Below are positions 10,451 to 35,615 of a DNA stretch of 64,000 nucleotides, piece after piece. This DNA is from Bacteroidota bacterium. Its GTDB lineage: Bacteria; Bacteroidota; Bacteroidia; Palsa-965. The DNA lies in contig PLYR01000145.1 of the NCBI GenBank assembly GCA_003153435.1, positions 20,034-84,033 on the forward strand, in the 5' to 3' direction. Under the pieces are notes generated by a model. The model had not been told where the DNA came from, made no database searches, and saw nothing but the letters and a program-made list of their open reading frames with translations. The first letter of the stretch is position 1; every line of letters begins with the position of its first letter. The position numbers were made by a program, and so were the translations under genes.

Positions 10451-10738
10451 TTAAGACTTCGCGCCGGCCGAAAGATACTTCAAGATAAGGACCTTCTGTT
10501 CATCAGTGAACTGGTGTCCGCCTCTTTTGTTTTGCATTTTATCTACGATTGTTGTCCATTCTGCTGCGGTATGGCCACTTGGAGTCGCACGCTTAATGTT
10601 ATGGCACTTGCTGCAGGCAGTATGCCAGGCTCCTTCTTCAGGGGTGGCAGGGGTATAAGTAGAATCGGTAGCTCCTCCTTTTTTTCCGCAGGAGATGATA
10701 ACTAAGCTTATAATCGAAAGGATAAATAATTTTTTCAT
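10451..10738 (-). CDS. Small lipoprotein with a single CxxCH haem-binding motif (a mini c-type cytochrome). It is a paralogue of the gene at 35616-35900.
   Basis: The likely start is an ATG at 10738, giving MKKLFILSIISLVIISC, which is an SPII lipobox. The mature protein is about 75 aa and contains W..ACSKCHN. A Met candidate for the distal haem ligand (DKMQNK) follows. The longer ORF that starts at 10804 lacks a signal peptide. Confidence 0.5.
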   Translation of the reverse strand: MKKLFILSIISLVIISCGKKGGATDSTYTPATPEEGAWHTACSKCHNIKRATPSGHTAAEWTTIVDKMQNKRGGHQFTDEQKVLILKYLSAGAKS

Positions 10739-10834: not shown

Positions 10835-11908
10835 TTAAACACTATGAAGATTTTCATGCAGGAGGAAATTGGAGATAAAGTCGCCTGTAGCAGTAGTTGA
10901 TCTCCCTCCTGAAGGGTTTAGATCTAGGGTCAGGGCTTCTGCTTGAATTGCTTCTTCCACAGCTCTGTGGATCCATGCACTCTCCAGTGGGAGCTGAAAC
11001 GAATATTCCAGCATCATTGCAGTAGAAAGAATTGCCCCGATAGGGTTAGCGATGTTCCGGCCTGCTGCTTCCGGCCAGGAACCATGGACGGGTTCATATA
11101 GAGATACTTTATTCCCTATGCTGGCGGAAGGCAGCATACCTAAGGAACCGGTAAGAACAGAAGCTTCATCACTCAGGATATCACCGAACATATTTTCGGT
11201 CAGAATAACATCAAACTGACGTGGGTTCTGTATGAGTTGCATAGCGGCATTGTCTACATACAAATAATCCACTTCCACACCTGGAAAATTGCCGGAGATT
11301 TCTCGTACCACTTCTCGCCAGAGCCTGGACGTCTCCAGGACGTTAGCCTTATCGACCAGGGTCAGCTTTTTCCTTCTTTGCATGGCTGCTTCAAAAGCCG
11401 GAATAGCGATGCGGATTATTTCTTCCCGGGTATAAAGGCAAAGGTCACTTGCTGAATCAGCACTTCTTTTCTTTTCACCGAAATACAACCCTCCTGTCAG
11501 CTCCCGGAAAATCACCAGATTAGCTCCAGCCAGTACTTGAGCTTTCAGCGGTGATCGGTTATAGAGACCAGGATAGCTCTTAACAGGACGGATATTTGCA
11601 TACAATCCCAATTCTTTTCTCATCCTTAACAAGCCTTGTTCAGGACTCATTCCCGATGGGTGGCGCTGATCAAAACGGGGATCCCCAACTGCTCCCAGAA
11701 GGATTGCATCGGAGGAGCGGCATAATTTCCCGGATTCTGGAGGGAATGGATCACCAACAGAGTCGATAGCTGCTGCACCAATCAGTGCTTCTGTAAAGGT
11801 GAATTTATGATTAAACCGGGTTGCTATTGCCTGGAGGATCTTAACAGCCTCCTTTGTGACCTCTTTTCCAATTCCATCGCCCGGAAGCAGTGCTATATTC
11901 TTTTTCAT
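10835..11908 (-). CDS. leuB: 3-isopropylmalate dehydrogenase
   Basis: It has LPGDGIGKEV and the IDH/IMDH fold motifs. It is 357 aa. The start overlaps the leuD stop by 4 bp. Confidence 0.9.
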   Translation of the reverse strand: MKKNIALLPGDGIGKEVTKEAVKILQAIATRFNHKFTFTEALIGAAAIDSVGDPFPPESGKLCRSSDAILLGAVGDPRFDQRHPSGMSPEQGLLRMRKELGLYANIRPVKSYPGLYNRSPLKAQVLAGANLVIFRELTGGLYFGEKKRSADSASDLCLYTREEIIRIAIPAFEAAMQRRKKLTLVDKANVLETSRLWREVVREISGNFPGVEVDYLYVDNAAMQLIQNPRQFDVILTENMFGDILSDEASVLTGSLGMLPSASIGNKVSLYEPVHGSWPEAAGRNIANPIGAILSTAMMLEYSFQLPLESAWIHRAVEEAIQAEALTLDLNPSGGRSTTATGDFISNFLLHENLHSV

Positions 11909-12522
11909 ATTCTGGAAAGGTTTTCAATAGAGGAAGCTTTTTTTTGCTCAAATAACGCGATCTGATCCCGTATCGAGAGAAGGTAATCTATATCGTCCAA
12001 CCCTTCCAGGAGACATAATTTTTTGTATGGGTTTATTACAAAAGGATAGGAGGTGGACTCACCATCGAAGAGTTCTACAAACTGATCTCTAAGATTAACA
12101 CCGATCTGAGTAGAAGGACTTTTCTTGCATTTTGCAAAGAGTTGTTTGAGGATGTTTTCAGGGAGTGTTATGGTAAGCAGACCGATATTAAGTGCGTTGT
12201 TTCGGAAAATGTCAGCAAAGCTTTCGGCAATGATAGCATCGAAGCCATAGTCTTGTATAGCCCATGCAGCATGCTCCCGACTGCTTCCACAGCCGAAATT
12301 TTTGCCTGTCATAAGAATTTTTCCATGAAAGGAGTCGTTGTTGAGGATGAACCCGGCCTTTTTCTTTCCGGAACTGTCGTACCGAAGATCCCGGAATAAA
12401 TTTTCTCCAAAGCCCGTTCTTCCGGTAGCTTTGAGGAACCGGGCCGGAATGATCTGGTCTGTGTCAATATTATCCGCTTCTAGCGGAACAACGGTGGATC
12501 TGAATGATTGAAATTTATTCAT
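11905..12522 (-). CDS. leuD: 3-isopropylmalate dehydratase small subunit
   Basis: It has the LeuD motifs (DNIDTDQIIPARFL, GCGSSREHAAWA). The start was reassigned to the internal ATG (MNKFQSF) at 12522. The listed 263-aa ORF is an upstream read-through that would overlap leuC. Confidence 0.85.
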   Translation of the reverse strand: MNKFQSFRSTVVPLEADNIDTDQIIPARFLKATGRTGFGENLFRDLRYDSSGKKKAGFILNNDSFHGKILMTGKNFGCGSSREHAAWAIQDYGFDAIIAESFADIFRNNALNIGLLTITLPENILKQLFAKCKKSPSTQIGVNLRDQFVELFDGESTSYPFVINPYKKLCLLEGLDDIDYLLSIRDQIALFEQKKASSIENLSRI

Positions 12523-12532
12523 CGTTTCTGAT

Positions 12533-13921
12533 TTAAGATGCCAACATTCGTATATCTGTGATATATCCATTGATGGCGCTTGCTGCCGCTGTTGCAGGGC
12601 TGGCAAGGATGGTTCTGGCACCAGGTCCTTGTCTTCCTTCAAAATTCCGGTTTGAAGTAGCCATACAATAAGAGAGCGGAGGAATCTTATCTTCATTCAT
12701 ACCCAGGCATGCAGAACATCCGGATTCTCTGAACTCAAATCCCGACTCCAGAAAGATATCTTCCAGACCTTCAGATTTGGCTTGTTGACGAACTCTTTGT
12801 GATCCTGGCACAATGAAGGCAATTACATCCTGTGAAACCTTTTTTCCTTTCACTACGGCTGCAACAATGCGCAGATCTTCGATCCTGGAATTGGTACAGC
12901 TTCCAATGAACACATAATCGAGTTTCTTCCCTGCTACTGGCTCCCCACCTTGCCATCCCATATACTCCAGGGCCTTTCTGTCTGACGGATTATTCAATAC
13001 CGGAATATTTGAATCAACGGCGATACCCATTCCAGGGTTAGTACCATAAGTCACCATTGGAGCAAGTCCTGTGATGTCGAAGTGAAGTTCCCTGGCAAAG
13101 AAGGCTCCTTCATCCGAATGTAATTCCTTCCACCTCTCAAGCGCTGCCTCTAATGCTTTTCCTTTGGGAGCGAAGGGCCTGTTTCGGATATACTCCAGGG
13201 TTTTGTCATCAGGTGCAATGATCCCACCACGGGCACCCATTTCTATACTCATATTGCATACGGTCATTCTTTCTTCAATGCTCAGAGCTGATATGGCACT
13301 TCCCATATATTCCACAAAGTGCCCTGTTGCAGCATCTGTTGAGGCCTGGGAGATAATGTATAAAATCAGATCCTTGGAACTTAACCAAGGACCCATTTCT
13401 CCCGTGACACAAATTTTCATTGCCGGGGGTCTCTCCTGAAGCAGGCACTGAGATGCAAAAACTTGCTCCACCTCTGTTGAACCAATCCCAAAAGCAAGGG
13501 CACCAAGTCCTCCGTGAGTGGAAGTATGACTGTCGCCACATACCATGGTCATTCCAGGGAGAGTTATTCCAAGCTCAGGGGCAATAACATGAACAATGCC
13601 TTGATTGGGATGACCAAGACCGAAGAGTTCGATTTCATGCTTCCTGCAGTTCTCCACTAACCGGCTTACCTGCAGTCGTGACATTTCTTCGCGAATAGGA
13701 AGATGTTGATTTATTGTAGGTACATTATGATCTGCAGTTGCCAGCGTTTGCTCTTTACGGAAAACAGAAATACCTCTTTTCTCCAGTCCGGCAAAGGCCT
13801 GAGGGCTAGTTACTTCATGAATGAGGTGTTTATCAATATAGAGCACATCCGGACCGCCTGGGATGCCTGTCACCTTGTGTTCATCCCAGATTTTATCAAA
13901 GAGTGTTTTAGCCTTCTTCAT
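12533..13921 (-). CDS. leuC: 3-isopropylmalate dehydratase large subunit (aconitase family)
   Basis: It has the aconitase-family Fe-S ligand regions (GDSHT, CTNSR, SCSACLG). It is 462 aa. There is a 4-bp overlap with the upstream leuA-like gene. Confidence 0.9.
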
Positions 13922-20132: not shown

Positions 20133-23100
20133 TTATTGGGTCCGAACGAGTGTGATAAATCCTTGCATATCATACACCACTCCATCGTCTCCCTTAGCAT
20201 GAATCACATAGAAGTAGGTGCCATTGGAGCAAACCTCACCAGCCATGGTGTGTCCGTCCCATGCTACACCAGGTGCTATGAGCTGAGCCATGGCTACTCC
20301 CCAACGGTCGTATATTTTGCAATCAAAGTAATCAATGCCGGCATAATTCACGTGCCAGTCGTCATTGATTCCGTCTCCGTTAGGTGTAAAAATGTTAGGT
20401 GCAGATATGAAAGATTTGATCTCTGATACATCAATGACTACACTATGGGTACTGGTACAGCCACTAGCATTGGTGACTGTAAGAAGTACGGTATAAGTTC
20501 CCGGAACGGTATAGAGATCATTCGCTCCGTTCTGTCCGTTTGCAGTGTTTCCGTCTCCGTAATTCCAGCTCCAGGTAGTTGCAGTGGCAGAACTGGAATC
20601 TGTAAATCCAACATAGAGTGGGGGAGTTCCGCTAAGGGTGCTCGGAATAAAGTTTGCGTTCACCGTGTTGACGGTTACGGGGAAGTTGGCACTGGCTGTG
20701 GTTCCGCATCCGTTAGTTGCGCTTACCGAATAGTTGCCTGTAGAATGAACCCAGATGGAGGCATTGCTCGATCCGGTACTCCACAGATATGGGCCTCCTC
20801 CATTTGCAGTTAACTGAACAGAATCTCCGTTACACATACCACTCTGACCGGTAATAGTAGGGGAGGGCTTCGGTAATACCGACATAGCGATGGTGGTAGA
20901 ATCTGTGCCGCATGCATTGGTTACATAAACCACATACACTCCGGCCGTATTAACTGTAATCGAGTCGCTGGTTGAGCCTGTGCTCCAGGAGTAAGTTCCT
21001 CCTCCACCGGCCGACAGGATAACATTGGTGCCTGCACAGAAGTTGGTGTTTCCTCCATTTGTAGAGATGGTAGGCACTGGTTTATTTCCGGTGTTCAATA
21101 TAGTTGTTGTTACAGATGCAGTACAGCCGTGAGCATCAATGACGTTGCAGGTATAGACTCCGGGTGTAAGCGTGGTAGCATTCGCTGTATTTCCTCCGGA
21201 AGGTAACCAGCTCCAGGTATAACCGGAAGTTCCTCCGCTAGGGGTGGCAGAAGCCGAACCGTCAGCTTGACCACATGTTGCTGCCGTAGGTGCAGCTGTT
21301 ACAGCAAGAACAGCAGGCTGGGTAACGGTAAATACCTGAGGAAGGGTACATCCATTCTGGTCAGTTACCGTGCAAGTATAGTTGCCAGCACTAAGCCCGC
21401 TTGCGGTTGCCCCTGAACCTCCTGATGGGGTCCAGTTATAGGTATAGATTGCTGTACCACCGCTTACAGTTGCAGTTCCACTGCCATTGGAGCTGCCGTT
21501 ACAACTTGCATTTGTTTGAGAAGAAACAATAGCGAGGGGGGTAGGCTGAGTGATGGTATAGATGTGTGAGGTCGTACAACCATTTGCATCTGTAACATTA
21601 CAGGTATAAGTACCTGCTGCAAGACCGCTTGCAGTCTGAGCACTTCCACCGGATGGTGTCCAGCTATAGGTATAAGCTGAAGTTCCACCGGCGACTGTAG
21701 CTGTGGCAGATCCTGTATTTCCACCGTTACAAAGGGCATTTGCCTGAGCCGAAGTGATTGAGAGTACGGCAGGCTGAGCAATGATTACAGATTGAGTGGA
21801 GACGCAGTTGCTGGCATCCGTTACAGTGCAGACATAAGTTCCGGCACAAAGAGACGAAGCTGTAGCAGCATTACCACCGCCTCCAGACCAGCTGTAAGCA
21901 AAAGGTGCAGTGCCACCGGTAGCGTTAACTGTAGCAGATCCGTTGCAGGATGCGTTACAAAGAGCCGCGTTATTAGAAGCAATACTCACACTAGGCGCAC
22001 CGGCAGAACTAATTGAAATGAGAGAGTCAAGGGTACAGCCATTAGCATCCTGAACAGTAACCGTATAACTTCCCGCAGCCAGACCAGTCACCGAATTGGT
22101 TCCTTGTCCACCACCTGGAGCAGGTGTCCAGTTATAAGTGTCAGCACCGGTTCCACCACTTGCAGTGACGGAAGCAGTACCGGTAGAGGTACCACAACCC
22201 GTTTGAGTACTTGCAGGTACCATGGAAAGCGAAGATATAGGTTGAGTTACAGAAACCGTGCTGGAGGTCGTACAACCGTTCGCATCAGTGATGTTACAAG
22301 TATAGGTGCCAGCCGCAAGACCTGTGGCAGTCACGGCGGTTTGTCCTCCGCCAATAACCCCGCCGGTCCAGTTATAAGTATATCCTATAGTGCCTCCGGA
22401 TACAGCTACGCTAGCTGTTCCTGAGGAACCACCTTTACAATTAACACTGGTTTGTGAAGGCGCAGCGCTTAGTACAGCAGGCGCAGCGATCGTTACTACC
22501 TGGCTTGTTACACAATTATTATTATCTGTCACGAAGCAGGTATAGCTGGTGTTTGCGCAAAGTGCGGTTGCCGTTGCAGCAGTTCCTCCAATGGGTGACC
22601 AAGAATAGGTATAAGTGCCGGCTCCTCCGCTTGCGGCAACTGTGGCCGATCCGTCACAGGAAGCGTTACACAGTGCAGGAGCTTGAGAAGCGATACTTGC
22701 TGAAGGTCCGCCAGCAGAGACAATATTATAAGTGGTAGACTGAGCACAATTATTTGCATCATTAACAGTTACGGTGTATGCACCTGAAGCAAGACCCGTG
22801 GCTGTTGGCGTTCCTTGTCCACCTCCAGGTGCAGGAGACCATGTATAGGTATCAGCACCTGTTCCGCCGGAAGCAGTAACTGTTGCAGTACCAGTGGCAA
22901 TTCCACAACCTGTATTGGTAGATGAAGGGGTAAGTGAAAGAGCACTCGCCGGTTCAGTTACAGCAATTGAGGCGGAAGTGGTACAACCGTTTGCATCGGT
23001 AATGTTACAGGTATAAGTTCCTGCGGCCAGTCCGGTTGCGGTAGAAGCAGTTTGTCCTCCTCCGATTACACCACCGGTCCAGGCGTAAGTATAGCCCGTT

Positions 23101-26100
23101 GTGCCACCCGATACCGTAACAGAAGCTGTTCCACTGGAACCACCGGTACAAAGTGCACTGGTTTGAGTTGGATTAGCGCTTAAAGCTACAGGGGCTCCGA
23201 TGGTTACATTCTGAGAGGTAACACAATTATTGGCATCGGTTATGGTACAAACATAAGTGGTATTCGCACAAAGTCCTGAAGCGGAGATTCCTGTTCCGCC
23301 TGAAGGTGACCAGGAATAGGTATACGCACCAGTACCACCGCTAGGTGCTACAGTAGCACTTCCATCGCAAGATGCACTACATTTTGCAGGAGCCTGAGAA
23401 GCAATAGATACAGAGGGTCCTCCAGCTGATGTTATGGTATAAAAGGATGTTTGAGGACAAGCATTCGCATCATGCACGGTCAATGTATATGTTCCTCCTC
23501 CAAGTCCTGTTGCAGTACTGGTTCCCTGTCCTCCTCCCGGTGCCGGTGCCCAGGTATAGGTGAAAGCACCGGTCCCGCCAGAGACAACCGCATTGGCTGT
23601 ACCGGTTGAAATTCCACATCCGGTGGTTGTGGAAGAAGGGGTGATTGAAATAACAGGTGGCTGAGTAATATTTATTACCTGAGGATGCGGGCAATTGTGT
23701 GAATCTGTTACTGTACAAGTATAGGTCCCTGCACTCAGGTTACTTGCTGTTGCAGAGTTTCCACCTGAAGGGGTCCACACATATATATACGCAGGTGTAC
23801 CTCCTGAAGGAGTAACGGTCGCGCTGGCTGTGCTGTTACCGCTACAAGATTCATTCAGCTGGGTGGCAGTGGTAGTTAAAGGCCCTGGCTGGACAATGTT
23901 AAAAGTGTGAGAGAGAGGACAACCATTTGCATCATGAATTGTGCAGGTATAGGTTGTTCCTCCAACAAGACCGTTGGCGGAATTAGTTCCTTGTCCACCA
24001 CCCGGTGCAGGAGCCCAGGTATAGGTAATAGCACCAGTACCGCCAGATGCGCTTGCAGTGGCTGTACCGTTGTTGTTTCCGTTACAGGTCACATTATTTT
24101 GAGAGGGAGCGATTGCTAAGGCACTTGGTTGTGTAATTGCAAAAGTTTGTGCAACCGGACAGTTGTTTGCGTCATGAACAGTACAGGTATAAGTAGTTGC
24201 ACCTACCAAGCCAGTAGCAGTGGCTGTGCCTTGTCCACCACCCGGAGCCGGAGCCCAGGTATAAGTATATCCTGCAGTACCACCGGAAGCAGTTGCCGTA
24301 GCGGTTCCATTATTGGAGCCATTACAATTCACATTTGCCTGGGTAGGAGTGATAGAAGGTGATGTACCGGGCTGAGTGATGGCAAAGGTTTGTGCTTTAG
24401 GGCAGCCATTCGCATCGTGAATGGTACAGGTATAGGTTGCGGGTCCGGAAAGTCCGGTCGCTGTGTTGGTTCCTTGTCCTCCTCCGGGTACAGGTGCCCA
24501 GGTGTAAGTGATTGCACCGGTACCGCCTGAAGAAGTTGCAGTGGCGGTTGCATTACTGCCCCCAAAACAACTTACGTTAGCCTGAGTAGGTACAATAGAT
24601 AAGGCGGATGGTTGTGTGATAGCAAAGGTTTGGGCCTTTGGACATCCATTTGCATCATGAATCGTACAAGTATAGGTGGTAGCTCCTGCTAATCCTGTTG
24701 CGGTGTTGGTTCCCTGACCACCACCCGGAGCGGGAGCCCAGGTATACGTTATAGCACCCGTTCCACCGGAGGCTGTTGCTGTTGCTGTTCCATTGGCAGA
24801 ACCGTTACAATTTACATTGGCTTGTGTTGGAGTAATCGATAATGCAGAGGGATTCGAAATTGTATACGTATGCGAAGCGGAGCAGCCGTTTGCTGTAGTT
24901 ACCGTACAAGTATAAGTGCCGGAGCCAAGTCCTGTTGCGGTTGCGGAGCCTTGCCCGCCTCCTCCATATCCAGCCCCAGTCCAATTATAGGTATAAGGGG
25001 CGTTTCCACCAGAAGCAGAAGCTGTAGCTGTTCCATTGCCGGAACCAACGCATGTAACATTAGAAGAGCTTGGTGTTATGGTTGCGGGTACAGCAAATGT
25101 AGCCAGCGTGCTGACGGTATAGCTACAACCATTTCCGGGAGTAACGGTAACCGTATAGGTACCACTTGCGTTGATAGTGATTACAGAGCCGGTAGTCGAT
25201 CCTACAATTCCGGGGCCGGTCCATGAAAAGGTTGTACCGGTCGGGCTTGGAGGAGCCGTAACAGTCATTGTGGAACCAATACAAGCTGCGGGCGTAGAAA
25301 CATTAAGTTGTTTAGGTCCGCAGGATCCATCGATATAAGCGTAACCGAAGTGACCACCGTGACTGCAGCCTGCAGCCGAAAAATAGATAGAGATCGTCTG
25401 ACCTGCAAACCCCGACAAGTCTAAAGTGTTTGACTGCCAGCCGGAAGAATAAACACCTGCGGCTACTGTGGAATATCCAGAAGGCGGTGATCCTGAAGTA
25501 CACTCCTGATAATATTGAAGACAAGGGATGACATGACCTGCTCCGTCGAAAACGTCCACCTCGAAATAAGGCATATCACCTAAGGGATGGCCTCCATCCT
25601 GCAGAATAACTGCATAGTTATAGGTGTAAAGGGCGTTGGTGGCATCCACAGTGAACTGTTGTTCGAGTAACTCTGCTCCGGCGTAAAAGCCTCCGCCTTG
25701 ACTAGCGGTAGTGGAGGTTTGTGCATAGGAATATGGAGGATAAATCCAGTACGGGGGCGTTGGAGAATAAGCTATATTCGGATCAATATACCCCCCACCA
25801 CACGAGCCTCCTTCAAGATTGAAATTATAGCCTCCAAGTCTGCAGGCATAGTTTCCACCACCCGGATCAACCATGGGTAAGCCTGAATAGGGGTCACTGC
25901 CTCCGCTGACAATGGTATGGGCATTACAGGATCCTACAGAGGCATTGGCTCCGCTTGGGCTGTATATTGTCCAGGAATTAACAAACATACTCAGGCCGTT
26001 CGGAATAGCACCTGCATTAAAACCATAGGCACCAGTCCAACCGGTGTAATCACCGGTTTCAAAGTCAGCATTATTACAACCAGCAAGAGGGTGTGGGTTC

Positions 26101-26450
26101 ACATGTGCAGCTCTTTGAGCTTTTACCTCAGCCTCCAGATCTTTGATGTGCTTGGCTTTATCGCGTTTAGGAGGAATGATATTATCGGGAATATGGTATT
26201 TGTCCTTCACGTAATGCGACTGAAGATGAAACATGTAATGCTTCTTCTCCGACTCCGCCATAGAGCCACGGAAGTTCATTGTATTCAATTCTGCTTGTGC
26301 CGCGGCGAAATCAAATCCGTTCAGACTATCACCTGCATAAAAATGATAGTCAACCTGATTCGAGGTAGGACCAATCGGGTTTCTTTCTTGTGCATAAGAA
26401 AAGGCGACAAGAAGGAAGAAGAAAAGTAAGGAGAGTAGTTTTTTATTCAT
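20133..26450 (-). CDS. Giant SprB-like cell-surface adhesin secreted by the T9SS. It has a signal peptide, an N-terminal domain of about 380 aa of unknown function, about 19 SprB-type repeats and PKD-like domains. It ends in a T9SS type-B CTD (gliding-motility-associated C-terminal domain).
   Basis: The start is placed at the ATG at 26450 (MNKKLLSLLFFFLLVAFSYAQ). The listed TTG at 26471 only adds 7 residues. The repeats have the form SGGTG.ITYTWAP.PGGGQGT.TATGL..GTYTCT..DANGC. The last roughly 85 residues match the type-B CTD (NIFTPNGDGINDDW...YDRWG). Confidence 0.8.
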   Translation of the reverse strand: MNKKLLSLLFFFLLVAFSYAQERNPIGPTSNQVDYHFYAGDSLNGFDFAAAQAELNTMNFRGSMAESEKKHYMFHLQSHYVKDKYHIPDNIIPPKRDKAKHIKDLEAEVKAQRAAHVNPHPLAGCNNADFETGDYTGWTGAYGFNAGAIPNGLSMFVNSWTIYSPSGANASVGSCNAHTIVSGGSDPYSGLPMVDPGGGNYACRLGGYNFNLEGGSCGGGYIDPNIAYSPTPPYWIYPPYSYAQTSTTASQGGGFYAGAELLEQQFTVDATNALYTYNYAVILQDGGHPLGDMPYFEVDVFDGAGHVIPCLQYYQECTSGSPPSGYSTVAAGVYSSGWQSNTLDLSGFAGQTISIYFSAAGCSHGGHFGYAYIDGSCGPKQLNVSTPAACIGSTMTVTAPPSPTGTTFSWTGPGIVGSTTGSVITINASGTYTVTVTPGNGCSYTVSTLATFAVPATITPSSSNVTCVGSGNGTATASASGGNAPYTYNWTGAGYGGGGQGSATATGLGSGTYTCTVTTANGCSASHTYTISNPSALSITPTQANVNCNGSANGTATATASGGTGAITYTWAPAPGGGQGTNTATGLAGATTYTCTIHDANGCPKAQTFAITQPSALSIVPTQANVSCFGGSNATATATSSGGTGAITYTWAPVPGGGQGTNTATGLSGPATYTCTIHDANGCPKAQTFAITQPGTSPSITPTQANVNCNGSNNGTATATASGGTAGYTYTWAPAPGGGQGTATATGLVGATTYTCTVHDANNCPVAQTFAITQPSALAIAPSQNNVTCNGNNNGTATASASGGTGAITYTWAPAPGGGQGTNSANGLVGGTTYTCTIHDANGCPLSHTFNIVQPGPLTTTATQLNESCSGNSTASATVTPSGGTPAYIYVWTPSGGNSATASNLSAGTYTCTVTDSHNCPHPQVINITQPPVISITPSSTTTGCGISTGTANAVVSGGTGAFTYTWAPAPGGGQGTSTATGLGGGTYTLTVHDANACPQTSFYTITSAGGPSVSIASQAPAKCSASCDGSATVAPSGGTGAYTYSWSPSGGTGISASGLCANTTYVCTITDANNCVTSQNVTIGAPVALSANPTQTSALCTGGSSGTASVTVSGGTTGYTYAWTGGVIGGGQTASTATGLAAGTYTCNITDANGCTTSASIAVTEPASALSLTPSSTNTGCGIATGTATVTASGGTGADTYTWSPAPGGGQGTPTATGLASGAYTVTVNDANNCAQSTTYNIVSAGGPSASIASQAPALCNASCDGSATVAASGGAGTYTYSWSPIGGTAATATALCANTSYTCFVTDNNNCVTSQVVTIAAPAVLSAAPSQTSVNCKGGSSGTASVAVSGGTIGYTYNWTGGVIGGGQTAVTATGLAAGTYTCNITDANGCTTSSTVSVTQPISSLSMVPASTQTGCGTSTGTASVTASGGTGADTYNWTPAPGGGQGTNSVTGLAAGSYTVTVQDANGCTLDSLISISSAGAPSVSIASNNAALCNASCNGSATVNATGGTAPFAYSWSGGGGNAATASSLCAGTYVCTVTDASNCVSTQSVIIAQPAVLSITSAQANALCNGGNTGSATATVAGGTSAYTYSWTPSGGSAQTASGLAAGTYTCNVTDANGCTTSHIYTITQPTPLAIVSSQTNASCNGSSNGSGTATVSGGTAIYTYNWTPSGGSGATASGLSAGNYTCTVTDQNGCTLPQVFTVTQPAVLAVTAAPTAATCGQADGSASATPSGGTSGYTWSWLPSGGNTANATTLTPGVYTCNVIDAHGCTASVTTTILNTGNKPVPTISTNGGNTNFCAGTNVILSAGGGGTYSWSTGSTSDSITVNTAGVYVVYVTNACGTDSTTIAMSVLPKPSPTITGQSGMCNGDSVQLTANGGGPYLWSTGSSNASIWVHSTGNYSVSATNGCGTTASANFPVTVNTVNANFIPSTLSGTPPLYVGFTDSSSATATTWSWNYGDGNTANGQNGANDLYTVPGTYTVLLTVTNASGCTSTHSVVIDVSEIKSFISAPNIFTPNGDGINDDWHVNYAGIDYFDCKIYDRWGVAMAQLIAPGVAWDGHTMAGEVCSNGTYFYVIHAKGDDGVVYDMQGFITLVRTQ
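20900..25270 (-). repeat. Intragenic tandem array of about 240-bp (about 80-aa) diverged SprB-repeat units, with roughly 17-19 copies
   Basis: The translated product shows periodic recurrence of the TYTW/AP.PGGGQGT and DANGC motifs. The region is Gly/Thr/Ala-rich and high in GC. This generates many spurious open frames on the plus strand. Confidence 0.7.
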
Positions 26451-26988
26451 CGTTGTGTTAATGATTATCAAAGGTTAAATCATAACATTGTAAAGCGTAT
26501 CCAATTCGCAATACACGAATCAAATTAATCCGGCCAAATAACAGATTGGACGATGGAATTACTCTTTTGTACGGAAGATTTCAAGAATAGATATACTTTT
26601 CTTAAAATAAACCTCAAAAACAATAATTATATTTGTAATCAGATCAATATTATAGGATTCCCTAAGCCTTATATTATTGATTAGTAGTGAGTTCTGCAGT
26701 GTGGTTCTTGGCTTTAAATTTCCGAAAAATTCCCGAAACCAGACAGGATAATTTGATAACATTCGACCAAAAGTATTTTATTGTCGACAAATATTATTAA
26801 ATATTCGACTAATATACTAAAAATAACTACTAACTAAAGTTTTTAGGCACATAAATTAGGCTTTTGACTGTATAAAATGGCCTTTCATCCAAAAAATAAT
26901 TTCGGAATTCAAGCGCAGACCTTGTAAGATTTCGGCAGGAAATTGTGATCGACAGGCAGGCCGATTTATGGGAAGAAATGCTAATTTA

Positions 26989-27479: not shown

Positions 27480-28541
27480 TTAATTCTTTACACATGAAAG
27501 TTTGTCGTAGTCGAGTACACTTATAAGCCGGCCTTTAATCTCGATAAGCTTTTCATCTTTCAAGTCGCTTAACATCCTGATGGCTGTTTCAGGCGCTGTT
27601 CCGGCCAGGTTTGCCAAATCTTCTCTCGAGATGCTGATACTGAAATTAGCTTCTCCATCTTTCTTGTACCTGTTGTAAAGTGTGACAAGCGCTTCCGCCA
27701 CCCGTTTACGAACGGAATTGTAGGCAAGTTTGAGGAGTTGGTCTTCTTTGTCAATTAAATCATTGGAAAGCATCTTGATAAATTTCTTTGAAACATCAGC
27801 ACTTTTATAAATCAGGGAGAAAAAATTATCTTTCGGAATCATGCAGATTTCAGAGTCTTCCAAAGTCATCGCCTCCTCTGTGTATTTGCTTTCTTCAAGC
27901 AAGGATAAGTGACCGAAAAATTCACCTTCCTTATAAAGACCATTGATGAATTCTTTCCCGAATTCATTTGTTTTAAAGGTTTTCACCTTTCCTTTAATAA
28001 CGAAATAAATTCCTTTAGGGTATCCTCCTGAGCTATATATTGATTCTTTCTTGCGGTAGTGATGAATATCCCGGTCTTCAGAAAGTTTTTTAAGGGTATC
28101 CAACCCTCCTGTTTCATTCATAAAGTCCTGAAGCCCTTCCAGACTTCTTTCGAATTTCTTCTTGAGATTATCAGCCTTTTTCAGTCTGCTGTCAATAGCA
28201 TTTAGCAGTTCCATATCGTCGAAAGGTTTGGTGATATAATCATCGGCTCCCATTTCCATTCCTTTTCTGAAATCATTCCTTTCGGTTTTGGCGGTAAGGA
28301 ATATAAAGGGGATATTGGAAGTTTCAGGGTTTTTGCCAAGCATATGCAATACGCCATAGCCATCCAGATGAGGCATCATGATATCACAAATAATTAAATC
28401 AGGCATTTCCGCAGAAACCATTTCCATACCTTCTTTTCCATTTGAAGCAGCCCTTACCTTATATCTGGCAAGTTCAAGCATTTCAGTCGTATTTTCCCGA
28501 AGTTCCGTGTTATCTTCGATTAAGAGGATTTTTTTGTGCAT
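27480..28541 (-). CDS. Fusion regulator with a CheY-like receiver domain, a cNMP-binding (CRP/FNR effector) domain and a Crp-type HTH
   Basis: The receiver motifs are LLIEDN...DLIICDIMMP...LTAK. A cNMP beta-roll with G-rich motifs follows. The C-terminal HTH is REDLANLAGTAPETAIRML. The start is placed at the ATG at 28541, 6 bp inside the listed TTG. It is a paralogue of the gene at 39439-40500. Confidence 0.75.
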   Translation of the reverse strand: MHKKILLIEDNTELRENTTEMLELARYKVRAASNGKEGMEMVSAEMPDLIICDIMMPHLDGYGVLHMLGKNPETSNIPFIFLTAKTERNDFRKGMEMGADDYITKPFDDMELLNAIDSRLKKADNLKKKFERSLEGLQDFMNETGGLDTLKKLSEDRDIHHYRKKESIYSSGGYPKGIYFVIKGKVKTFKTNEFGKEFINGLYKEGEFFGHLSLLEESKYTEEAMTLEDSEICMIPKDNFFSLIYKSADVSKKFIKMLSNDLIDKEDQLLKLAYNSVRKRVAEALVTLYNRYKKDGEANFSISISREDLANLAGTAPETAIRMLSDLKDEKLIEIKGRLISVLDYDKLSCVKN

Positions 28542-28637
28542 ATTCAAGTTGTTAATTATGATTGGCTCCTCTTTAAATTAAACAAATGTTAAGAATTCTT
28601 GCGATACCAAAATTAGGGAATGGATCCTTGGTAAACA

Positions 28638-28649
28638 TGATGAATATCA
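28638..28649. promoter_or_regulatory. Candidate CRP/FNR-type operator, the palindrome TGAT-GAAT-ATCA
   Basis: It is a perfect 4-4-4 inverted repeat in the divergent intergenic region. It lies about 80 bp upstream of the terB-like operon and about 100 bp upstream of the divergent REC-CRP gene. Confidence 0.3.
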
Positions 28650-28728
28650 GTTAATCTCTGGATATAGGTCATTCCAGGAAAACAATAGGCGAATTAGATT
28701 TGTCTTGTAATCAACTAATACCATAAAA

Positions 28729-29151
28729 ATGTCTGATATGAACCCTCTTCAAAACCTACATTACGCCCTCGGTGAATTGGCCTATTCGATAGCCCGGGCA
28801 GATGGAAAAGTACAGGAATCGGAAAAAAAACGTTTTCATAGCATTGTGGCCGCCGAACTTCGTTTGGGAAACTATGACTTCGACCTCAGCGATATCATAT
28901 TTCAGATTATGGACAAGGAGCATATTGATACGGAAACTTCCTACCATTGGGCCATGAATGAGATTCGTCTAAACAGCCATTATCTGAGCCCGGAACTAAA
29001 GCAAACATTCATCCGGGTGATGGAAAAGGTGGCCAGAGCCTACCCACCGGTTACCATTCAGGAAAAAGAATTATTGGATAAATTTAAAACGGATATTGCA
29101 ACCATTAATGGTGATCCTGTTTTTTATGAAAAACATAATAAACGCGTCTGA
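28729..29151 (+). CDS. TerB-like (tellurite-resistance / DjlA-N-like) domain protein
   Basis: It has LGELAYSIARADGKVQESEKKRF, which is typical of the TerB helical bundle. It is 140 aa and cytoplasmic. Confidence 0.45.
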   Translation: MSDMNPLQNLHYALGELAYSIARADGKVQESEKKRFHSIVAAELRLGNYDFDLSDIIFQIMDKEHIDTETSYHWAMNEIRLNSHYLSPELKQTFIRVMEKVARAYPPVTIQEKELLDKFKTDIATINGDPVFYEKHNKRV

Positions 29152-29196
29152 GGACGATTAAGAAACGGAATTAGTAAATAGTAAATAAAAATAGCG

Positions 29197-29739
29197 ATGT
29201 TAAATTATAATCCTGTTAACTTTAAGGAAATGAGCCCTTCTGAGCTTTGTGATTACATTGCTAAAAGGCACCATAAATATGTAAGGGAAGAATTTGGGAA
29301 GATCTCAGACCATCTGAAAACAGCTCTGAATGTGGATGTTAATTCAGGCCCCGAGCTGAGAGCAATCATCAAGCTCTTTCATGAATTGCATGACGAACTT
29401 GAGCAACATTTCAATAAGGAGGAGGAAATTCTTTTTCCTTTAGTTCAACAACTGATTATATCTGAGGAGACTGAGCGCGCCAAGAAGAATTTATCTGTAA
29501 GTATCATTGATAAGCCTTTGGAAGAAATGAACAAGGATCATAAAAAGATTGAACGAATTCTCTCTGAGATACGCCGGCTGAGTCATGATTATTTTCTGGA
29601 TCCGATGAGTTCGCCTACTCATAAATTGTGTTTAAATGAATTATTCGCACTGGAAGATGATCTTCACAAACAGTTTTACCTGGAAGAAAATATATTGACA
29701 CCGAAGCTGATTACCTGGGAACAAACCATATTATCATGA
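29197..29739 (+). CDS. Hemerythrin-like HHE cation-binding domain protein
   Basis: It has H/E-rich helices (HHKYVREEF, HELHDELEQHFNKEEEILFP). It is 180 aa. It overlaps the next gene by 4 bp (ATGA). Confidence 0.45.
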   Translation: MLNYNPVNFKEMSPSELCDYIAKRHHKYVREEFGKISDHLKTALNVDVNSGPELRAIIKLFHELHDELEQHFNKEEEILFPLVQQLIISEETERAKKNLSVSIIDKPLEEMNKDHKKIERILSEIRRLSHDYFLDPMSSPTHKLCLNELFALEDDLHKQFYLEENILTPKLITWEQTILS

Positions 29740-30179
29740 TAGCCACACATTCTTATATTGCCGCAGAAGCATTTACCCGGATTTCTCTGGGGATTATCTT
29801 CTTCTCTCAGGGTTATGATAAGGTTTTCAACCTTGGAATTCCCAGTGTCATTAATAATTTTGAATACCCGGTGAGATTGAAGCATCTCCCCAGGTTTCCC
29901 CTTGTTTTTGCAGCATACTTTACATCCATTGTCGAACTCATCGGAGGATTTCTGCTGATTCTCGGCTTCATGAAGTATTATGCCCTCTATTTTTTAGGAA
30001 TAGACCTCCTTATAGTGGTTGCATCGCTCTCTATGCTTGAACCCCTGTGGGATATGAAGCATGTATTTCCAAGAATGCTCCTCCTTGTTATTTTGTTGAT
30101 TATGCCTTCTTCGTGGGGAGTCGTTTCAGTTGATTACCTTTGGTCCATCATACGATTTATACGACATTTCCTATCCTAA
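29736..30179 (+). CDS. DoxX-family integral membrane protein
   Basis: It has four predicted TM helices. The DoxX-like start is RISLGIIFFSQGYDKV. It is 147 aa. Confidence 0.6.
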   Translation: MIATHSYIAAEAFTRISLGIIFFSQGYDKVFNLGIPSVINNFEYPVRLKHLPRFPLVFAAYFTSIVELIGGFLLILGFMKYYALYFLGIDLLIVVASLSMLEPLWDMKHVFPRMLLLVILLIMPSSWGVVSVDYLWSIIRFIRHFLS

Positions 30180-30190
30180 AATATAGTATC

Positions 30191-31021
30191 ATGAAGAGCC
30201 CTCAAATCCTTGTCCCTACTGATTTCTCTGACTCATCTAATAACGCTGCGGAGTATGCATGGTCCCTTGCAAAGGTGATGAAAGCTTCATTGCTCCTTTA
30301 TCACGCCTATCACATCCCAATTCCGACCACAGAAATGCCAATGATGATCGTTTCCTTAGAGCAGCTGGAAAAGGAGAATATCGATCGCCTCCATTCTTAC
30401 CGTGCACAATTGAGAAAAAAATTGGGTAACGATATTACTATAGATTGCATTGCAAGTCCCGGTTTTGCAGTCGAAGAAATTGCAGCACTGGTGAAGGACA
30501 AACAAATTGATTTTGTGATTATGGGAATATCCGGAGCAGGAAAGATTTCCCAAGCTCTCCTGGGTAGTGTTACTACCGGAGTGTTGAATGAAGTAAAGGT
30601 GCCTTTGCTGATTGTTCCGGAAGGTGCGAAGTTCCGTCCACTGACTAAGGTTGGCCTTGCTTACGACTATCAGAGTGAGATCAGTCCCAAAATTGTGGCA
30701 GAACTTAAAGCGGTTACTGCCTTGTTTAAATCCAAGCTCTTTATTATTGATGTAGAATCTCCGAAAGAAAAAGTGAATATCTCCAAGGCTGTAAGCGGAA
30801 TCAAGCTTGAGCAGGCCCTTGAAAGTATAGAACATACCCTTCATTTTCCTAAGAACAGTGATATCGTAACAGGGCTTATTGAATTTGATGAAAATCACAA
30901 AGTGGATCTCCTCATCATGATTCCAAAGAGGCATTCTCTGCTGTCGAGAATCTTCAATGCGAGCAGCACCAAACGGATGGCTTTTCATTCTCATACTCCT
31001 ATACTGGCCCTCCACGAATAA
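30191..31021 (+). CDS. Universal stress protein with tandem UspA domains
   Basis: The start is at the ATG at 30191 (MKSPQILVPTDFSDSS). There are two Usp repeats with G..G(9x)G(S/T)-like ATP motifs (VIMGISGAG). The stop overlaps the next start by 1 nt. Confidence 0.65.
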   Translation: MKSPQILVPTDFSDSSNNAAEYAWSLAKVMKASLLLYHAYHIPIPTTEMPMMIVSLEQLEKENIDRLHSYRAQLRKKLGNDITIDCIASPGFAVEEIAALVKDKQIDFVIMGISGAGKISQALLGSVTTGVLNEVKVPLLIVPEGAKFRPLTKVGLAYDYQSEISPKIVAELKAVTALFKSKLFIIDVESPKEKVNISKAVSGIKLEQALESIEHTLHFPKNSDIVTGLIEFDENHKVDLLIMIPKRHSLLSRIFNASSTKRMAFHSHTPILALHE

Positions 31022-32286
31022 TGGCGGTCATAAAAAGTAAGGAGAAAAAAGTGTGGAGTTTCACTAGGTTCTGGAAATCACTCGGTCCAGGATTAGTTAC
31101 CGGGGCCAGTGATGACGATCCTTCTGGTATCGCCACATATTCTCAGGCTGGAGCGGCTTTTGGCCTGTCTACACTTTGGACTGCTCTGATCACCTTTCCA
31201 TTGATGGCAGCTATTCAGGGTATGTGCGCCAGAATTGGTTTGGTTACTTCCAATGGCCTTACCTATACCTTAAAGAAGCACTATTCGAAACCCCTGCTGT
31301 ATGTCATGGTCCTTATTTCCCTCCCTGCTATTATCCTTAACATCGGGGCAGATATTGCAGGAATGGGTGCTGTTGCCAATCTGCTAGTTCCTTCTGTACC
31401 CGCTATTGTATTTGCTCTTTTGCTGGTATTCTTTCTGATCGTCAGCCTTATTTATTTTCCTTATCGAAAAATTGCCGCTGTTCTCAAATGGCTTTGCCTG
31501 ACTCTGCTGCTTTATGCAATCGTGCCTTTTCTGGTCAAGAACGACTGGTGGGAAGTGGCGAAAGCCTCCGTCATTCCTCAAATCCACTTTTCAAAAACAT
31601 ACCTCACCATCCTGGTTGGGATTCTTGGAACCACTATTTCTCCCTATCTCTTTTTCTGGCAGGCTTCCATGGAAAAGGAGGATCAGGAAAGTAAGAAAAG
31701 AACTATCATGGTAGGCTCCAAAGACCTTAGTGAAATGAAGGTTGATGTGAATGTCGGCATGTTTTTTTCAAACATTGTGATGTACTTTATTATCCTTACC
31801 ACTGGAAGTGTTCTTTTCAGAAACGGAGTCACCAATATCAATACTGTGCAGGAAGCGGCATCTGCCTTAAAACCTCTGGCAGGAAATTCAGCGTATCTTC
31901 TTTTTGCAATTGGAGTGATCGGAACAGGTTTTCTGGCTATTCCCGTACTGGCAGGTTCAGCATCTTATATCCTTTCAGAAACTCTGGGTTGGAAAGAAGG
32001 TCTGAATAAAAAGTGGAGTGAAGCCAAAGGCTTTTATTTAATTATAGCAGTTTCAATTATTATCGGCTTCCTGATAAACCTTCTGAACATAAATCCCATC
32101 AAAGCTCTTCTCTTCACTGCTGTTGCCTATGGTATTACCGCACCTGTGTTGATAGGTATGATCCTGCATATCTGCAACAATAAGAAGATTATGGGGGAAC
32201 ATACCAATACCCGGCTTTCCAATGTGCTGGGCTGGTTTGCCTTATTGCTGATGGCATTTGCGGCAGTGGCTTTGTTTATTATCTGA
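31021..32286 (+). CDS. NRAMP-family divalent metal (Mn2+/Fe2+) transporter
   Basis: It has GPGLVTGASDDDPSGIATYSQAGA, the NRAMP DPGN-type motif region. It has about 11 TM segments and is 421 aa. Confidence 0.75.
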   Translation: MAVIKSKEKKVWSFTRFWKSLGPGLVTGASDDDPSGIATYSQAGAAFGLSTLWTALITFPLMAAIQGMCARIGLVTSNGLTYTLKKHYSKPLLYVMVLISLPAIILNIGADIAGMGAVANLLVPSVPAIVFALLLVFFLIVSLIYFPYRKIAAVLKWLCLTLLLYAIVPFLVKNDWWEVAKASVIPQIHFSKTYLTILVGILGTTISPYLFFWQASMEKEDQESKKRTIMVGSKDLSEMKVDVNVGMFFSNIVMYFIILTTGSVLFRNGVTNINTVQEAASALKPLAGNSAYLLFAIGVIGTGFLAIPVLAGSASYILSETLGWKEGLNKKWSEAKGFYLIIAVSIIIGFLINLLNINPIKALLFTAVAYGITAPVLIGMILHICNNKKIMGEHTNTRLSNVLGWFALLLMAFAAVALFII

Positions 32287-32333
32287 AGAAGATTCAATTA
32301 TCCGCGGTTATTGACAATTGTTATTTTATGCAT

Positions 32334-33425
32334 TCATGGATTAGCCGTCTGAAATGGAATTGTAAAGTAAAGGGTACTACCAAAACCTATTCGGCTCTCC
32401 ACCCAGATCCTGCCACGAGCCTTCTCGACAATTTTCCTCACTATGGAAAGGCCCACTCCTGTACTTTCCACATCTTTCCGGTGGTGGGCCTTCACAAAGA
32501 CGTCAAATATTTTTTCAAAATAGCGTTCTTCTATCCCCATTCCGTTATCCTCTACAAAGAACATCCATTCATTCCCTTTCTTGTCCCACCCAATCTTTAT
32601 TACTCCATCCGGTTTGTCCATGAATTTTACGGCATTCCCAATCAGGTTTTCAAAAACCTCTCTAAGGTGCGTCTTATTGAAAAGCACAGTTGGAAACCGT
32701 TCGGATAAAATGAATTTGATCTTAATCCTGCTGGTATAGCGCTTTGCAATTTCATCCAGCAAATCATTTAAGTTAATCGTTTCAGCCTCCTCCTGGTTGT
32801 TCCCCACCCTGAAATACTCCAGGAGGTCAACGATAAGTGCATTCATGTAGTTGGCTTCCTTTTGTGCTAAATGAAACAGGGTTATAAATTCTTCATCCAT
32901 TTGAGCGGAATATTTTGCAAGACTCAGGTCAAGCACGCCTTTGATTCCATTCAAAGGGTTTTTGAGATCATGAGCTGCAACCCTGGTCAACATTTCCAAT
33001 TCCTTGTTGGCTCTTTCAAGATCCTCCACCAATTGCTTAAGCTGCTCCTCATACCTGATTCGTTCGGTGATATCCTTACCGGATGAGACAAAATGAGTGA
33101 TCTCCCCGGTATCATCACATACCGGAGTAATAGTCTTTTCTTCGAAATAGATCTCTCCGTTCTTTTTTTTGTTACAAACTACTGCGCGAAAGGGTTTCTT
33201 GGCTAGGATCGTCTCCCACATACCTCGGTAGTAATCTTTAGTAGCCCTGCCTGACTGAAGGAATCGTGGATTCTTCCCTAATACCTCCTCAGAAGTATAT
33301 CCTGTTATGGTCTCAAAAGCAGGATTTACGTAGGTTATAGCTCCATCTTTGGTTGTAAAAAATATATTATCGGAGGTGATCTTAATCGCAGAGTCAAACC
33401 CAATGGGGACTGTACTGATATTCAT
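32334..33425 (-). CDS. PAS-domain sensor histidine kinase (cytoplasmic)
   Basis: The PAS motifs are ITYVNPAFETITGY, EEVLGKNPRFLQS. The HisKA H-box is AAHDLKNPLNGI. The HATPase_c boxes N (LIGNAVKF) and G1/G2 (DNGMGI, GVGLSI) are present. Confidence 0.75.
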   Translation of the reverse strand: MNISTVPIGFDSAIKITSDNIFFTTKDGAITYVNPAFETITGYTSEEVLGKNPRFLQSGRATKDYYRGMWETILAKKPFRAVVCNKKKNGEIYFEEKTITPVCDDTGEITHFVSSGKDITERIRYEEQLKQLVEDLERANKELEMLTRVAAHDLKNPLNGIKGVLDLSLAKYSAQMDEEFITLFHLAQKEANYMNALIVDLLEYFRVGNNQEEAETINLNDLLDEIAKRYTSRIKIKFILSERFPTVLFNKTHLREVFENLIGNAVKFMDKPDGVIKIGWDKKGNEWMFFVEDNGMGIEERYFEKIFDVFVKAHHRKDVESTGVGLSIVRKIVEKARGRIWVESRIGFGSTLYFTIPFQTANP

Positions 33426-33466
33426 TTTCTTGTTGTTTATAAAAATGAAAAGTCAGAAACACACAC

Positions 33467-34009: not shown

Positions 34010-34153
34010 ACTTGTGTTGATTTAATATGTCTCGAAAGTATTGTGAATACGCAGGGTCGGGAATGACATTTGGCAGATCCCGGGATGATAATTATCAGTG
34101 ATTCGCATTTTAGGGTCTTAAGCCTCCCGAGGTGACATGAATCATGCTCCCAT

Positions 34154-34166
34154 TTGACGTTGATCA
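34154..34166. promoter_or_regulatory. Candidate FNR-type box TTGAC-GTTG-ATCA
   Basis: It matches TTGAT-N4-ATCAA at 8 of 10 positions. It lies in the 360-bp divergent intergenic region between the anchored cytochrome c gene and the porin-like gene. Confidence 0.25.
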
Positions 34167-34368
34167 TTAAGGTAAGACTTGGTTCGGTGCATATTTGTGC
34201 AATCTTAATTCCGAACAATACCAAAACCAAGCAAGATGAAAAAGACAAGAAAAGTTCACTTATCTGGAAGATTACCAACGGACGGCCTCCCAGGGTTGGA
34301 TATACCAAAGTATACAGTGGTTAACGGAAATAAATTGTCAATCAATTAACGAGTTAAAAGTCAAAAAA

Positions 34369-35595: not shown

Positions 35596-35615
35596 CCCTC
35601 CATAAAAACATACTT

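Follow-up and report, generated by a model that had tools for sequence, protein, structure and literature searches.

In Acidithiobacillus, Zetaproteobacteria, Gallionellaceae and Chlorobi, Fe(II) is oxidised by Cyc2, a fusion of cytochrome and porin. Cyc2 is recognised as a single polypeptide of at least 365 aa in which an N-terminal CxxCH is fused to a porin, with the motif AxPxFAR[Q/K][T/Y] upstream and PxL downstream of the CxxCH, and its porin part was modelled on OprP (2O4V) as a 16-strand barrel (PMC8406198). PgcA of Geobacter sulfurreducens (8QJ6, 8QJG, 8QK0) is a lipoprotein with domains of ~60–90 residues and 8.9–10.5 kDa, in which three short helices surround one haem (PMC11520253). 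Here, we analysed a stretch of 64,000 nucleotides of a Bacteroidota bacterium (GenBank assembly GCA_003153435.1, contig PLYR01000145.1, positions 20,034 to 84,033 of the forward strand; the whole stretch is called the window in the following), in which two genes, A and B, encode small proteins predicted to be lipid-anchored monohaem c-type cytochromes, and in which B directly follows the gene of an outer-membrane porin. We lean towards a split porin-cytochrome module in which B would serve as the redox subunit, with metal ions in the envelope as its tentative substrate, while A would be a free-standing carrier. The genes concerned are:

10451–10738, minus strand: gene A, predicted lipoprotein monohaem cytochrome c of 95 aa with ATG start, lipobox IISC, haem motif CSKCH and distal Met68.
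35616–35900, plus strand: gene B, predicted lipoprotein monohaem cytochrome c of 94 aa with lipobox Cys29, haem motif CIRCH and the pair H71-M72; second gene of the porin-cytochrome operon.
34369–35595, plus strand: partner outer-membrane porin of 408 aa with signal peptide, 16-strand barrel and C-terminal Phe.
35949–35987, plus strand: putative terminator, a hairpin (GCGGUUGAAUA...UAUUCAACCGC) with U-rich tail, ~50 nt past the stop codon of B.

In the window B starts 20 nt past the porin gene, and A is located between leuB and a Reg_prop/Y_Y_Y/His_kinase sensor; a sequence-only reading of this DNA had already placed one of the two next to a porin-like gene and the other next to a kinase. The neighbourhood of B is conserved far beyond the window. 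A scan with one genome per species resulted in 263 genomes with B, of which the best 80 loci were examined. In every one of the 78 evaluable loci the gene directly upstream of B, read from the same strand, encodes a porin, with gaps of mostly 8–50 nt. The 80 loci derive from Chitinophagales, Saprospiraceae, Lewinellaceae, Flavobacteriales, Cyclobacteriaceae, Bacteroidales, Melioribacteraceae and Chlorobiota, and the cultured carriers include Segetibacter koreensis, Lewinella cohaerens, Flavihumibacter profundi, Ferruginibacter paludis and Ginsengibacter hankyongi. A second scan, done with distant B-like proteins (12-sequence alignment), covered 80 metagenome loci with a median GC content of 54%. 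Here the pairing was called in 70 of 73 evaluable loci, and since two of the exceptions are artefacts of open reading frame (ORF) calling, the number rises to 72 of 73. Combined, this results in 150 of 151 evaluable loci, and a porin-B pair is also present in L099. In a metagenome-assembled genome of the Chitinophagales (L007, 4019–8697, and L033) two porin-B pairs are even arranged in tandem (395 + 90 aa and 388 + 89 aa), followed by a third porin that has no cytochrome; a HemN-like radical SAM gene adjoins them. Fused cytochrome-porin proteins were not found among the loci examined, L120 and L173 being artefacts of ORF calling. That B is dedicated to the porin as its partner is clear, and the earlier idea of a dedicated small carrier is thereby borne out for B.

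Porin and B look bicistronic, because a strong hairpin with a U-rich tail follows shortly after B. For the region 35898–36010 a folding energy of −29.8 kcal/mol was calculated (z −4.0), and none of 200 shuffled sequences folded as well. The hairpin is probably the terminator of the porin-B operon; a consensus terminator scan did not pick it up. For A as well as for B, scanning the surroundings for consensus promoters and terminators was uninformative altogether, Bacteroidota promoters being outside the models used. A search for the Fnr/Crp box TTGAT-N4-ATCAA with one mismatch gave five matches compared to 5.6 expected, none of them upstream of the porin-B operon.

The AlphaFold2 (AF2) model of the porin (predicted local distance difference test score, pLDDT, of 85.6) shows a disordered linker of residues 25–46 and 16 main strands. 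Foldseek matched it to OmpT, PorB and OprP/OprO with E-values of 1e-13 to 1e-10, among them OprP 2o4v_A (E 1.5e-10, template modelling score 0.57) and OprO 4rjw (~1e-10). On the sequence level the window porin has neither a Pfam match at E ≤ 1 nor an NCBIfam match; Porin_O_P (PF07396) is weakly reached by five of 57 porin relatives (best E 3.8e-5), and the porin family profile gave no match to sequences in the PDB. The window porin has no CxxCH of its own. Comparing the mean column identities, B (55%) is more conserved than the porin (47%).

Both A and B are intact ORFs with a signal peptide, a lipobox Cys and one CxxCH. The N-terminus of A reads MKKLFILSIISLVIISC and continues with GKK, and B reads FVMMDGC at its lipobox, followed by KVPE. 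The lipobox Cys is invariant in all eight homologues of A and in all 51 homologues of B and is also kept in at least 90% of the distant B-like proteins; the residue at position −2 of the B lipobox is atypical (D/N), and that at −1 is always small (G/A/S). Among the eight homologues of A, C17, the CxxCH motif, P53, W61 and M68 are all invariant, and the 51 homologues of B share 16 invariant columns. When 28 B-type sequences were aligned jointly with eight A-type ones, W44, C48, C51, H52, P57, W65 and M72 (B numbering) proved invariant. In both families the Pro follows the His of the haem motif at a distance of five residues, then comes the Trp and, ~20 residues past the His, the Met; the H-M pair is near-invariant also in distant B-like members.

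Class I cytochromes are characterised by a proximal His, a Pro nearby, a Trp and a distal Met. Since CxxCH, Pro, Trp and Met of A and B mirror this pattern in miniature, both proteins are, judged from their sequences, genuine minimal monohaem c-type cytochromes, exported via Sec and signal peptidase II and lipid-anchored, with predicted His/Met ligation; the haem attachment and the membrane topology are likewise predictions. Given the invariant distal Met, the haem is predicted to be six-coordinate and to serve electron transfer, not the binding of ligands. The sequence-only reading had reported small CxxCH lipoproteins with signal peptidase II lipoboxes and a shared ordered set of motifs, and on both points it agrees with the conservation found across the homologues. 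It had furthermore stated that both proteins are much smaller than canonical class I cytochromes: the mature domains, ~79 aa in A and ~66 aa in B, are indeed at the low end of known cytochromes c, but this size is not unprecedented, as SorB with 81 aa and the PgcA domains show. The AF2 model of B (pLDDT 88.6) consists of the signal-peptide helix and the short helices 33–36, 40–51, 62–76 and 80–92. Structure searches with this apo model yielded noise-level matches only; SorB was the best cytochrome match in Foldseek.

A and B match each other in BLASTP with an E-value of 1e-6 and 24% identity, and their family profiles were aligned by hhalign with a probability of 96.8% (E 2.5e-10, 52 columns). 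When each profile was searched against the 676 stop-to-stop ORFs of the window, it found its own gene and the other one only (E ~5e-6). By these comparisons, A and B are homologous but distant paralogues that represent two subfamilies of one large uncurated superfamily. The assumption of a two-member family was thus wrong: at E ≤ 1e-3 an exhaustive profile search resulted in 4,748 cluster representatives, and at E ≤ 1e-10 there were still 762. The top matches are mostly B-like lipoproteins of 85–125 aa, of many lineages judging by sequence composition. Other members are lipoproteins of 200–786 aa with two to eight tandem copies of the module, and the A profile scores these better. A-type single-domain proteins are rare, with eight found by a word-seeded search and one (P0124) among the top 150 representatives. 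Some members carry the plain NCBI label 'cytochrome c'.

Examples of tandem-module proteins are P0240, P0251, P0271, P0304 (L180, 7001–8281), P0318 and P0378; P0304 has six haems and is followed by four Paired_CXXCH multihaem cytochromes downstream. Several dihaem members open with Met-rich stretches that might bind Cu(I). Plasmids with no listed porin also encode distant copies of the module, with ~43% identity over 56 aa, namely pAM1A3 of Alteromonas macleodii (L181, 8923–9447) and a plasmid of Legionella anisa (L182, 8887–9522). The match on pAM1A3 straddles two short annotated ORFs, with CopC/CopD at a distance of ~6 kb and a hydrogenase cluster downstream. A plasmid search with the partner porin gave no match.

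No Pfam or NCBIfam model captures A or B at the curated cut-off. For Cytochrome_CBB3 (PF13442) the scores are 15.6 and 18.0 bits compared to a cut-off of 27, and for Cytochrom_C (PF00034) 17.3 bits compared to 21.3; the matches to the Pfam families DHC and Dehyd-heme_bind are also far below the cut-off. Considering 36 members, matches below the threshold were obtained to Cytochrome_CBB3 for 36 of 36, to Cytochrom_C for 28 of 36 and to DHC for 23 of 36. Profile searches of the PDB gave non-significant matches that are all small cytochromes, the nearest being DHC 3u99 (E 0.012), haem domains of quinohaemoprotein (QH)-amine dehydrogenases and SorB 2blf_B; B matched the PgcA haem domain II (8qjg) with E 0.16. 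An assignment to a well-known cytochrome family with an established role would have spoken against the sequence-only reading, but no such family claims the two genes.

Next to the porin, B is accompanied by further cytochromes and a membrane protein, the window copies of which are listed here together with one further ORF with a CxxCH motif:

52843–53304, plus strand: class I cytochrome c of 153 aa (PF00034, E 1e-13), of the orthologue type encoded upstream of the porin.
53346–53846, plus strand: lipoprotein class I cytochrome c of 166 aa with lipobox LLTFGC, of the type encoded just downstream of B in 20 of 80 loci.
33467–34009, minus strand: class I cytochrome c (PF00034, E 8.6e-10), 180 aa long and anchored by a hydrophobic C-terminus, divergently transcribed from the porin.
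56901–58154, plus strand: polytopic membrane protein of 417 aa with ~10–12 transmembrane segments and near-invariant H54, H188 and H325; no Pfam or NCBIfam match.
40657–40959, plus strand: ORF with a (weak) YHS-type metal-binding domain and the motif CPVCH, not a cytochrome.

A class I cytochrome c of ~144 aa is encoded directly upstream of the porin in 67 of the 80 genomes (phmmer, median −1597 nt from B). The usual operon partner of B is an ordinary class I cytochrome c, which would connect the module to the respiratory chain. In the window this orthologue type is displaced by ~17 kb from porin-B; it reaches 42.8 bits with the model 'cytochrome 579', which is below the threshold given the cut-off of 280. 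A second cytochrome resembling the proteins of 53346–53846 and 33467–34009 is encoded downstream of B in ~20 of 80 genomes. The protein of 33467–34009 is a paralogue of this downstream cytochrome; its phmmer matches come from 19 loci, the median distance to B being +490 nt. Homologues of the membrane protein are encoded downstream of porin-B in 15 of 80 genomes, and it is a possible inner-membrane partner, which may bind haem or metal. It had been considered as a second porin paralogue; this was rejected, as it bears no relation to the porin and belongs to the polytopic proteins of the inner membrane. In the window the system is hence split into two sites, 33.4–35.9 kb and 52.8–58.2 kb, the second of which also encodes HemN (TIGR00538, 453 bits) and a regulator of the Crp family. 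Altogether seven ORFs of the window contain CxxCH: five are cytochromes (A, B and the three of class I), one is the YHS-type ORF and one is spurious. A YHS protein is encoded near the porin-B module in L003, too.

Part of the wider gene context points to metals. Metal genes were counted within 8 kb of the module using strict and loose thresholds. With the strict threshold 20 of the 80 genome loci have at least one kind of metal gene and 12 have two or more, and with the loose threshold the number is 29 of 80. The kinds found are HMA/HMBD P-type ATPases, three-domain multicopper oxidases, CusB-like fusion proteins (HMBD + DUF3347), resistance-nodulation-division pumps and small Met- or His-rich proteins, and these genes are mostly co-directional with the triad of cytochrome, porin and B. 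In L043, for example, the order is P-type ATPase, multicopper oxidase, AraC and further genes, then cytochrome, porin, B and a Met-rich protein, and after further genes NDH-2, multicopper oxidase and P-type ATPase. The triad lies inside such heavy-metal or copper strings in L043, L044, L047, L051, L055, L060, L070, L080, L082, L085 and L093, and these strings also hold SHOCT, DUF5676 and NDH-2. Taking ~1–2% of a genome as the share of heavy-metal islands, which is a rough estimate and not a computed background, the enrichment around the triad would be large, the loci not being phylogenetically independent.

In the window itself porin-B is embedded in a dense island of stress or low-oxygen type (27480–40500), which encodes two fusions of response regulator, cyclic-nucleotide (cNMP) and Crp domains, three PAS histidine kinases, TerB, a RIC-like hemerythrin, DoxX, tandem Usp, Nramp and a protein with a metallo-β-lactamase (MBL) fold and double rhodanese. 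Related loci repeat PAS histidine kinases, response regulator-Crp fusions, TerB, DoxX and Usp, or Crp/Fnr-type regulators, or HemN, and the distant metagenome group has a Crp-like protein in 15 of 80 and DoxX in 15 of 80 loci. No catalytic enzyme is conserved in the porin-B cluster. The cytochromes must therefore be the reactive parts, if the module has a chemistry of its own, and this would point to direct redox reactions with metal ions.

Beyond the gene linkage, we infer every functional step of the porin-B module as follows. After export and lipidation, B would be placed at the periplasmic face of the outer membrane; the residues following its Cys, K-[VAT]-P-[EDQ], are presumably unlike the acidic surface-export signal of Bacteroidota lipoproteins. 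A tether of ~8 residues would keep B at the porin, where it would take electrons from a reduced solute passing through or lodged in the pore. As judged from the gene context, the likeliest solute would be Cu(I) or Fe(II), which would be oxidised under copper stress or low-oxygen stress. From B the electrons would be passed to a soluble class I cytochrome of the 52843–53304 type and then to an oxidase or the respiratory chain, this direction of electron flow being part of the proposal. That B and the porin cooperate physically in transferring electrons, including a direct contact of both, we consider quite probable. The metal ion as the substrate is a tentative assignment. It is doubtful, in turn, whether porin, B and upstream cytochrome together are an unrecognised, widespread outer-membrane metal-ion oxidase and thereby a split functional counterpart of Cyc2.

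Several observations weigh against this scheme. L154 (1–875) is the only real exception from the pairing, where a B-like cytochrome lacks both the lipobox Cys and the porin and follows a soluble pyrroloquinoline quinone (PQQ)-dehydrogenase-like gene. Superfamily members on plasmids of Alteromonas, Glaciecola and Legionella sit in other contexts, those of Alteromonas and Legionella without a porin, and the distant metagenome group has no upstream class I cytochrome. Three quarters of the loci have no metal genes within 8 kb, and neither a copper ATPase nor a multicopper oxidase is encoded in the window. The missing catalytic enzyme fits direct metal oxidation but is no proof of it. A is without any contextual evidence, and finally the architecture and the haem-motif surroundings of porin-B deviate from those of Cyc2.

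An alternative is that A and B are ordinary periplasmic respiratory shuttles like c551, c553 or c6, which carry electrons from a quinol oxidoreductase to a terminal oxidase, the porin being merely co-regulated. The class I signatures in their sequences would be expected for such shuttles, and more class I cytochromes as well as HemN are encoded close by; moreover, the nearby Crp/Fnr-like regulators suggest a low-oxygen respiratory remodelling. However, it would be unexpected for a generic shuttle that one porin family adjoins it in nearly all evaluable loci and that the pair is duplicated as a unit. Furthermore, no genes for an oxidase, a bc complex or alternative complex III are conserved beside the pair, and a quarter of the loci are in metal-resistance islands. 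This makes ordinary shuttles an unlikely explanation.

Improbable, too, is that A and B act similarly to SorB as electron-accepting subunits of a periplasmic dehydrogenase (sulfite, PQQ or amine) encoded elsewhere. SorB (NF052246) is the best NCBIfam match of both proteins, with E-values of 1.4e-4 and 7.8e-4, and 2blf_B and the haem domains of QH-amine dehydrogenases are among the top PDB matches. In addition, the B-like gene of L154 without lipobox follows a PQQ-dehydrogenase-like gene, and in the window the MBL-fold/rhodanese gene adjoins B. However, the SorB scores of 21.8 bits (A) and 19.5 bits (B) are far from the cut-off of 93, no dehydrogenase is conserved beside B in the 160 loci, and the MBL-rhodanese neighbour is present in only four of 80 loci. 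For A, such a role is more conceivable. A function in sulfur oxidation, to which the SorB match, the MBL-rhodanese protein and DoxX might have pointed, was considered and rejected, since the neighbours are too rare (4/80 and 1/80 genomes; DoxX in 15/80 metagenomes).

It is very unlikely that the haem acts as a redox or gas sensor with a regulatory role, signalling the redox state of the periplasm to a kinase in the case of A or gating the porin in the case of B. This idea, raised already in the sequence-only reading, which had also noted the kinase next to one of the genes, builds on the position of A 50 nt upstream of a sensor kinase and a LytTR regulator in the window and in L098, a relative with 76% identity, and on the PAS kinases and Crp-type regulators around B; also, the invariant His71 of B beside the distal Met72 could allow ligand switching. 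The order leuB-A-kinase is, however, restricted to the window and L098 and is lost in the other four of six contexts (L012, L015, L096 and L097). Among these six relatives the contexts of A vary, as A is found between leuB and the kinase, after DUF4249, after UDP-glucose dehydrogenase or before small unknown proteins. The regulators are not conserved beside B, and the distal Met, invariant across the superfamily, predicts a closed six-coordinate haem, so that neither the sensor idea nor a link of A to the kinase is supported. As judged from its sequence and surroundings, A can only be called a free-standing, lipid-anchored electron carrier with no fixed partner gene.

A link of A to TonB-dependent receptors and DUF4249 was also tried and rejected: receptors are encoded within 7 kb in five of six contexts, but the contexts form only two independent syntenic groups, and such receptors are very abundant in Bacteroidota. 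In the window a 2112-aa ORF (20133–26471, minus strand) lies upstream of a CarboxypepD_reg TonB-dependent receptor and DUF4249, and this order recurs before the A homologue in L012. Near A, the leuD ORF (11905–12696, minus strand, 263 aa) overlaps leuC (12533–13921, minus strand) by ~160 nt; leuD of L098 has 208 aa, and the true start of the window leuD is probably further downstream.

That A and B are no haem proteins at all, with CxxCH serving as a metal-binding or thiol motif or the ORFs being artefacts, is highly improbable, as both families are kept as intact ORFs in many genomes, Pro, Trp and Met of the class I pattern are invariant along with CxxCH and all members give HMM (hidden Markov model) matches in the cytochrome clan, even though haem in A and B is a prediction and the YHS-type ORF of the window carries CPVCH without being a cytochrome.

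A literature search for a module of porin and monohaem lipoprotein cytochrome, covering Bacteroidota, Acidobacteria and copper resistance, found no description in the full texts searched. The porin-B pair, apparently an unstudied unit, occurs in no fewer than 263 species-level genomes as well as in many metagenomes of soil, peat and lakes. If the pairing of B and porin is only regulatory, both cytochromes are ordinary small ones of local interest. If instead the module is a metal-ion oxidase, heterotrophic Bacteroidota, Ignavibacteriota, Chlorobiota and other bacteria of soil, peat and lakes would oxidise Cu(I) or Fe(II) at their envelope and feed the electrons into respiration. No multicopper oxidase would be needed for this, so that the oxidation would continue under oxygen scarcity. 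The toxicity of Cu(I) is highest at low oxygen, and the link to copper islands suggests a cytochrome-based handling of Cu(I) without a multicopper oxidase. Neither Pfam nor NCBIfam has curated the family, and with several cultured carriers available the hypothesis can be tested directly. Current marker-gene tools for the redox cycling of iron or metals would miss the porin-B pair, since FeGenie drops any porin that has no haem motif (PMC8406198).

Compared with known systems, the porin shares the 16-strand barrel with OprP and OprO, which are its Foldseek matches and whose Pfam family is weakly reached by a few of its relatives; OprP and OprO, unlike the window porin, have no cytochrome partner. 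The organisation of barrel and c-type cytochrome genes in one operon, together with the presumed role in electron transfer at the outer membrane, resembles the porin-cytochrome complexes Pcc, MtrAB, MtoAB and PioAB. These, however, have 8–10 haems and barrels of 20–26 strands, whereas porin-B with one haem and 16 strands could not span the membrane electrically on its own. With PgcA the superfamily has in common that it includes lipoproteins with two to eight tandem modules, and to the DHC dihaem cytochromes (PF09626; 3u99, 2fwt) there are the weak, sub-threshold matches of 23 of 36 members. A and B differ from both by being single-domain proteins, and the matches to both are non-significant; PgcA is, in addition, secreted to the cell surface and, unlike B, is not paired with a porin. 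SorB, the subunit of the sulfite dehydrogenase SorAB, is similar to A and B in size, in the single haem with His/Met ligation, which is predicted for A and B, and in the layout of C..CH, W and M. A and B differ from it in scoring at ~20 bits only, in being lipoproteins and, for B, in the pairing with a porin, and a SorA-type molybdoenzyme is found neither beside A or B in the window nor among the conserved neighbours in the 160 loci.

By analogy, Cyc2 is the nearest known system. In both cases one small monohaem module is combined with a 16-strand, OprP-like barrel, conservation is higher in the cytochrome than in the porin, as was reported for the domains of Cyc2, and a periplasmic class I cytochrome is encoded nearby. 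In contrast to the N-terminal fusion in Cyc2, porin and B are encoded by two genes, with the cytochrome downstream and predicted to be lipid-anchored. B contains KSGAQLWGEN-CxRCH-NxPxP and thus lacks AxPxFAR[Q/K][T/Y] and has only the Pro of PxL, and the gene context of porin-B points to copper as much as to iron. A separate, downstream, lipid-anchored cytochrome without the Cyc2 motif argues for an analogue of Cyc2 and not for a simple gene fission or a demonstrable homologue. Porin-B is hence set apart from Cyc2 by its architecture and by the published description of the Cyc2 motifs, and if both proteins form a working complex, they would represent a second, split solution to the task of Cyc2, with one haem placed at a 16-strand pore of the outer membrane.

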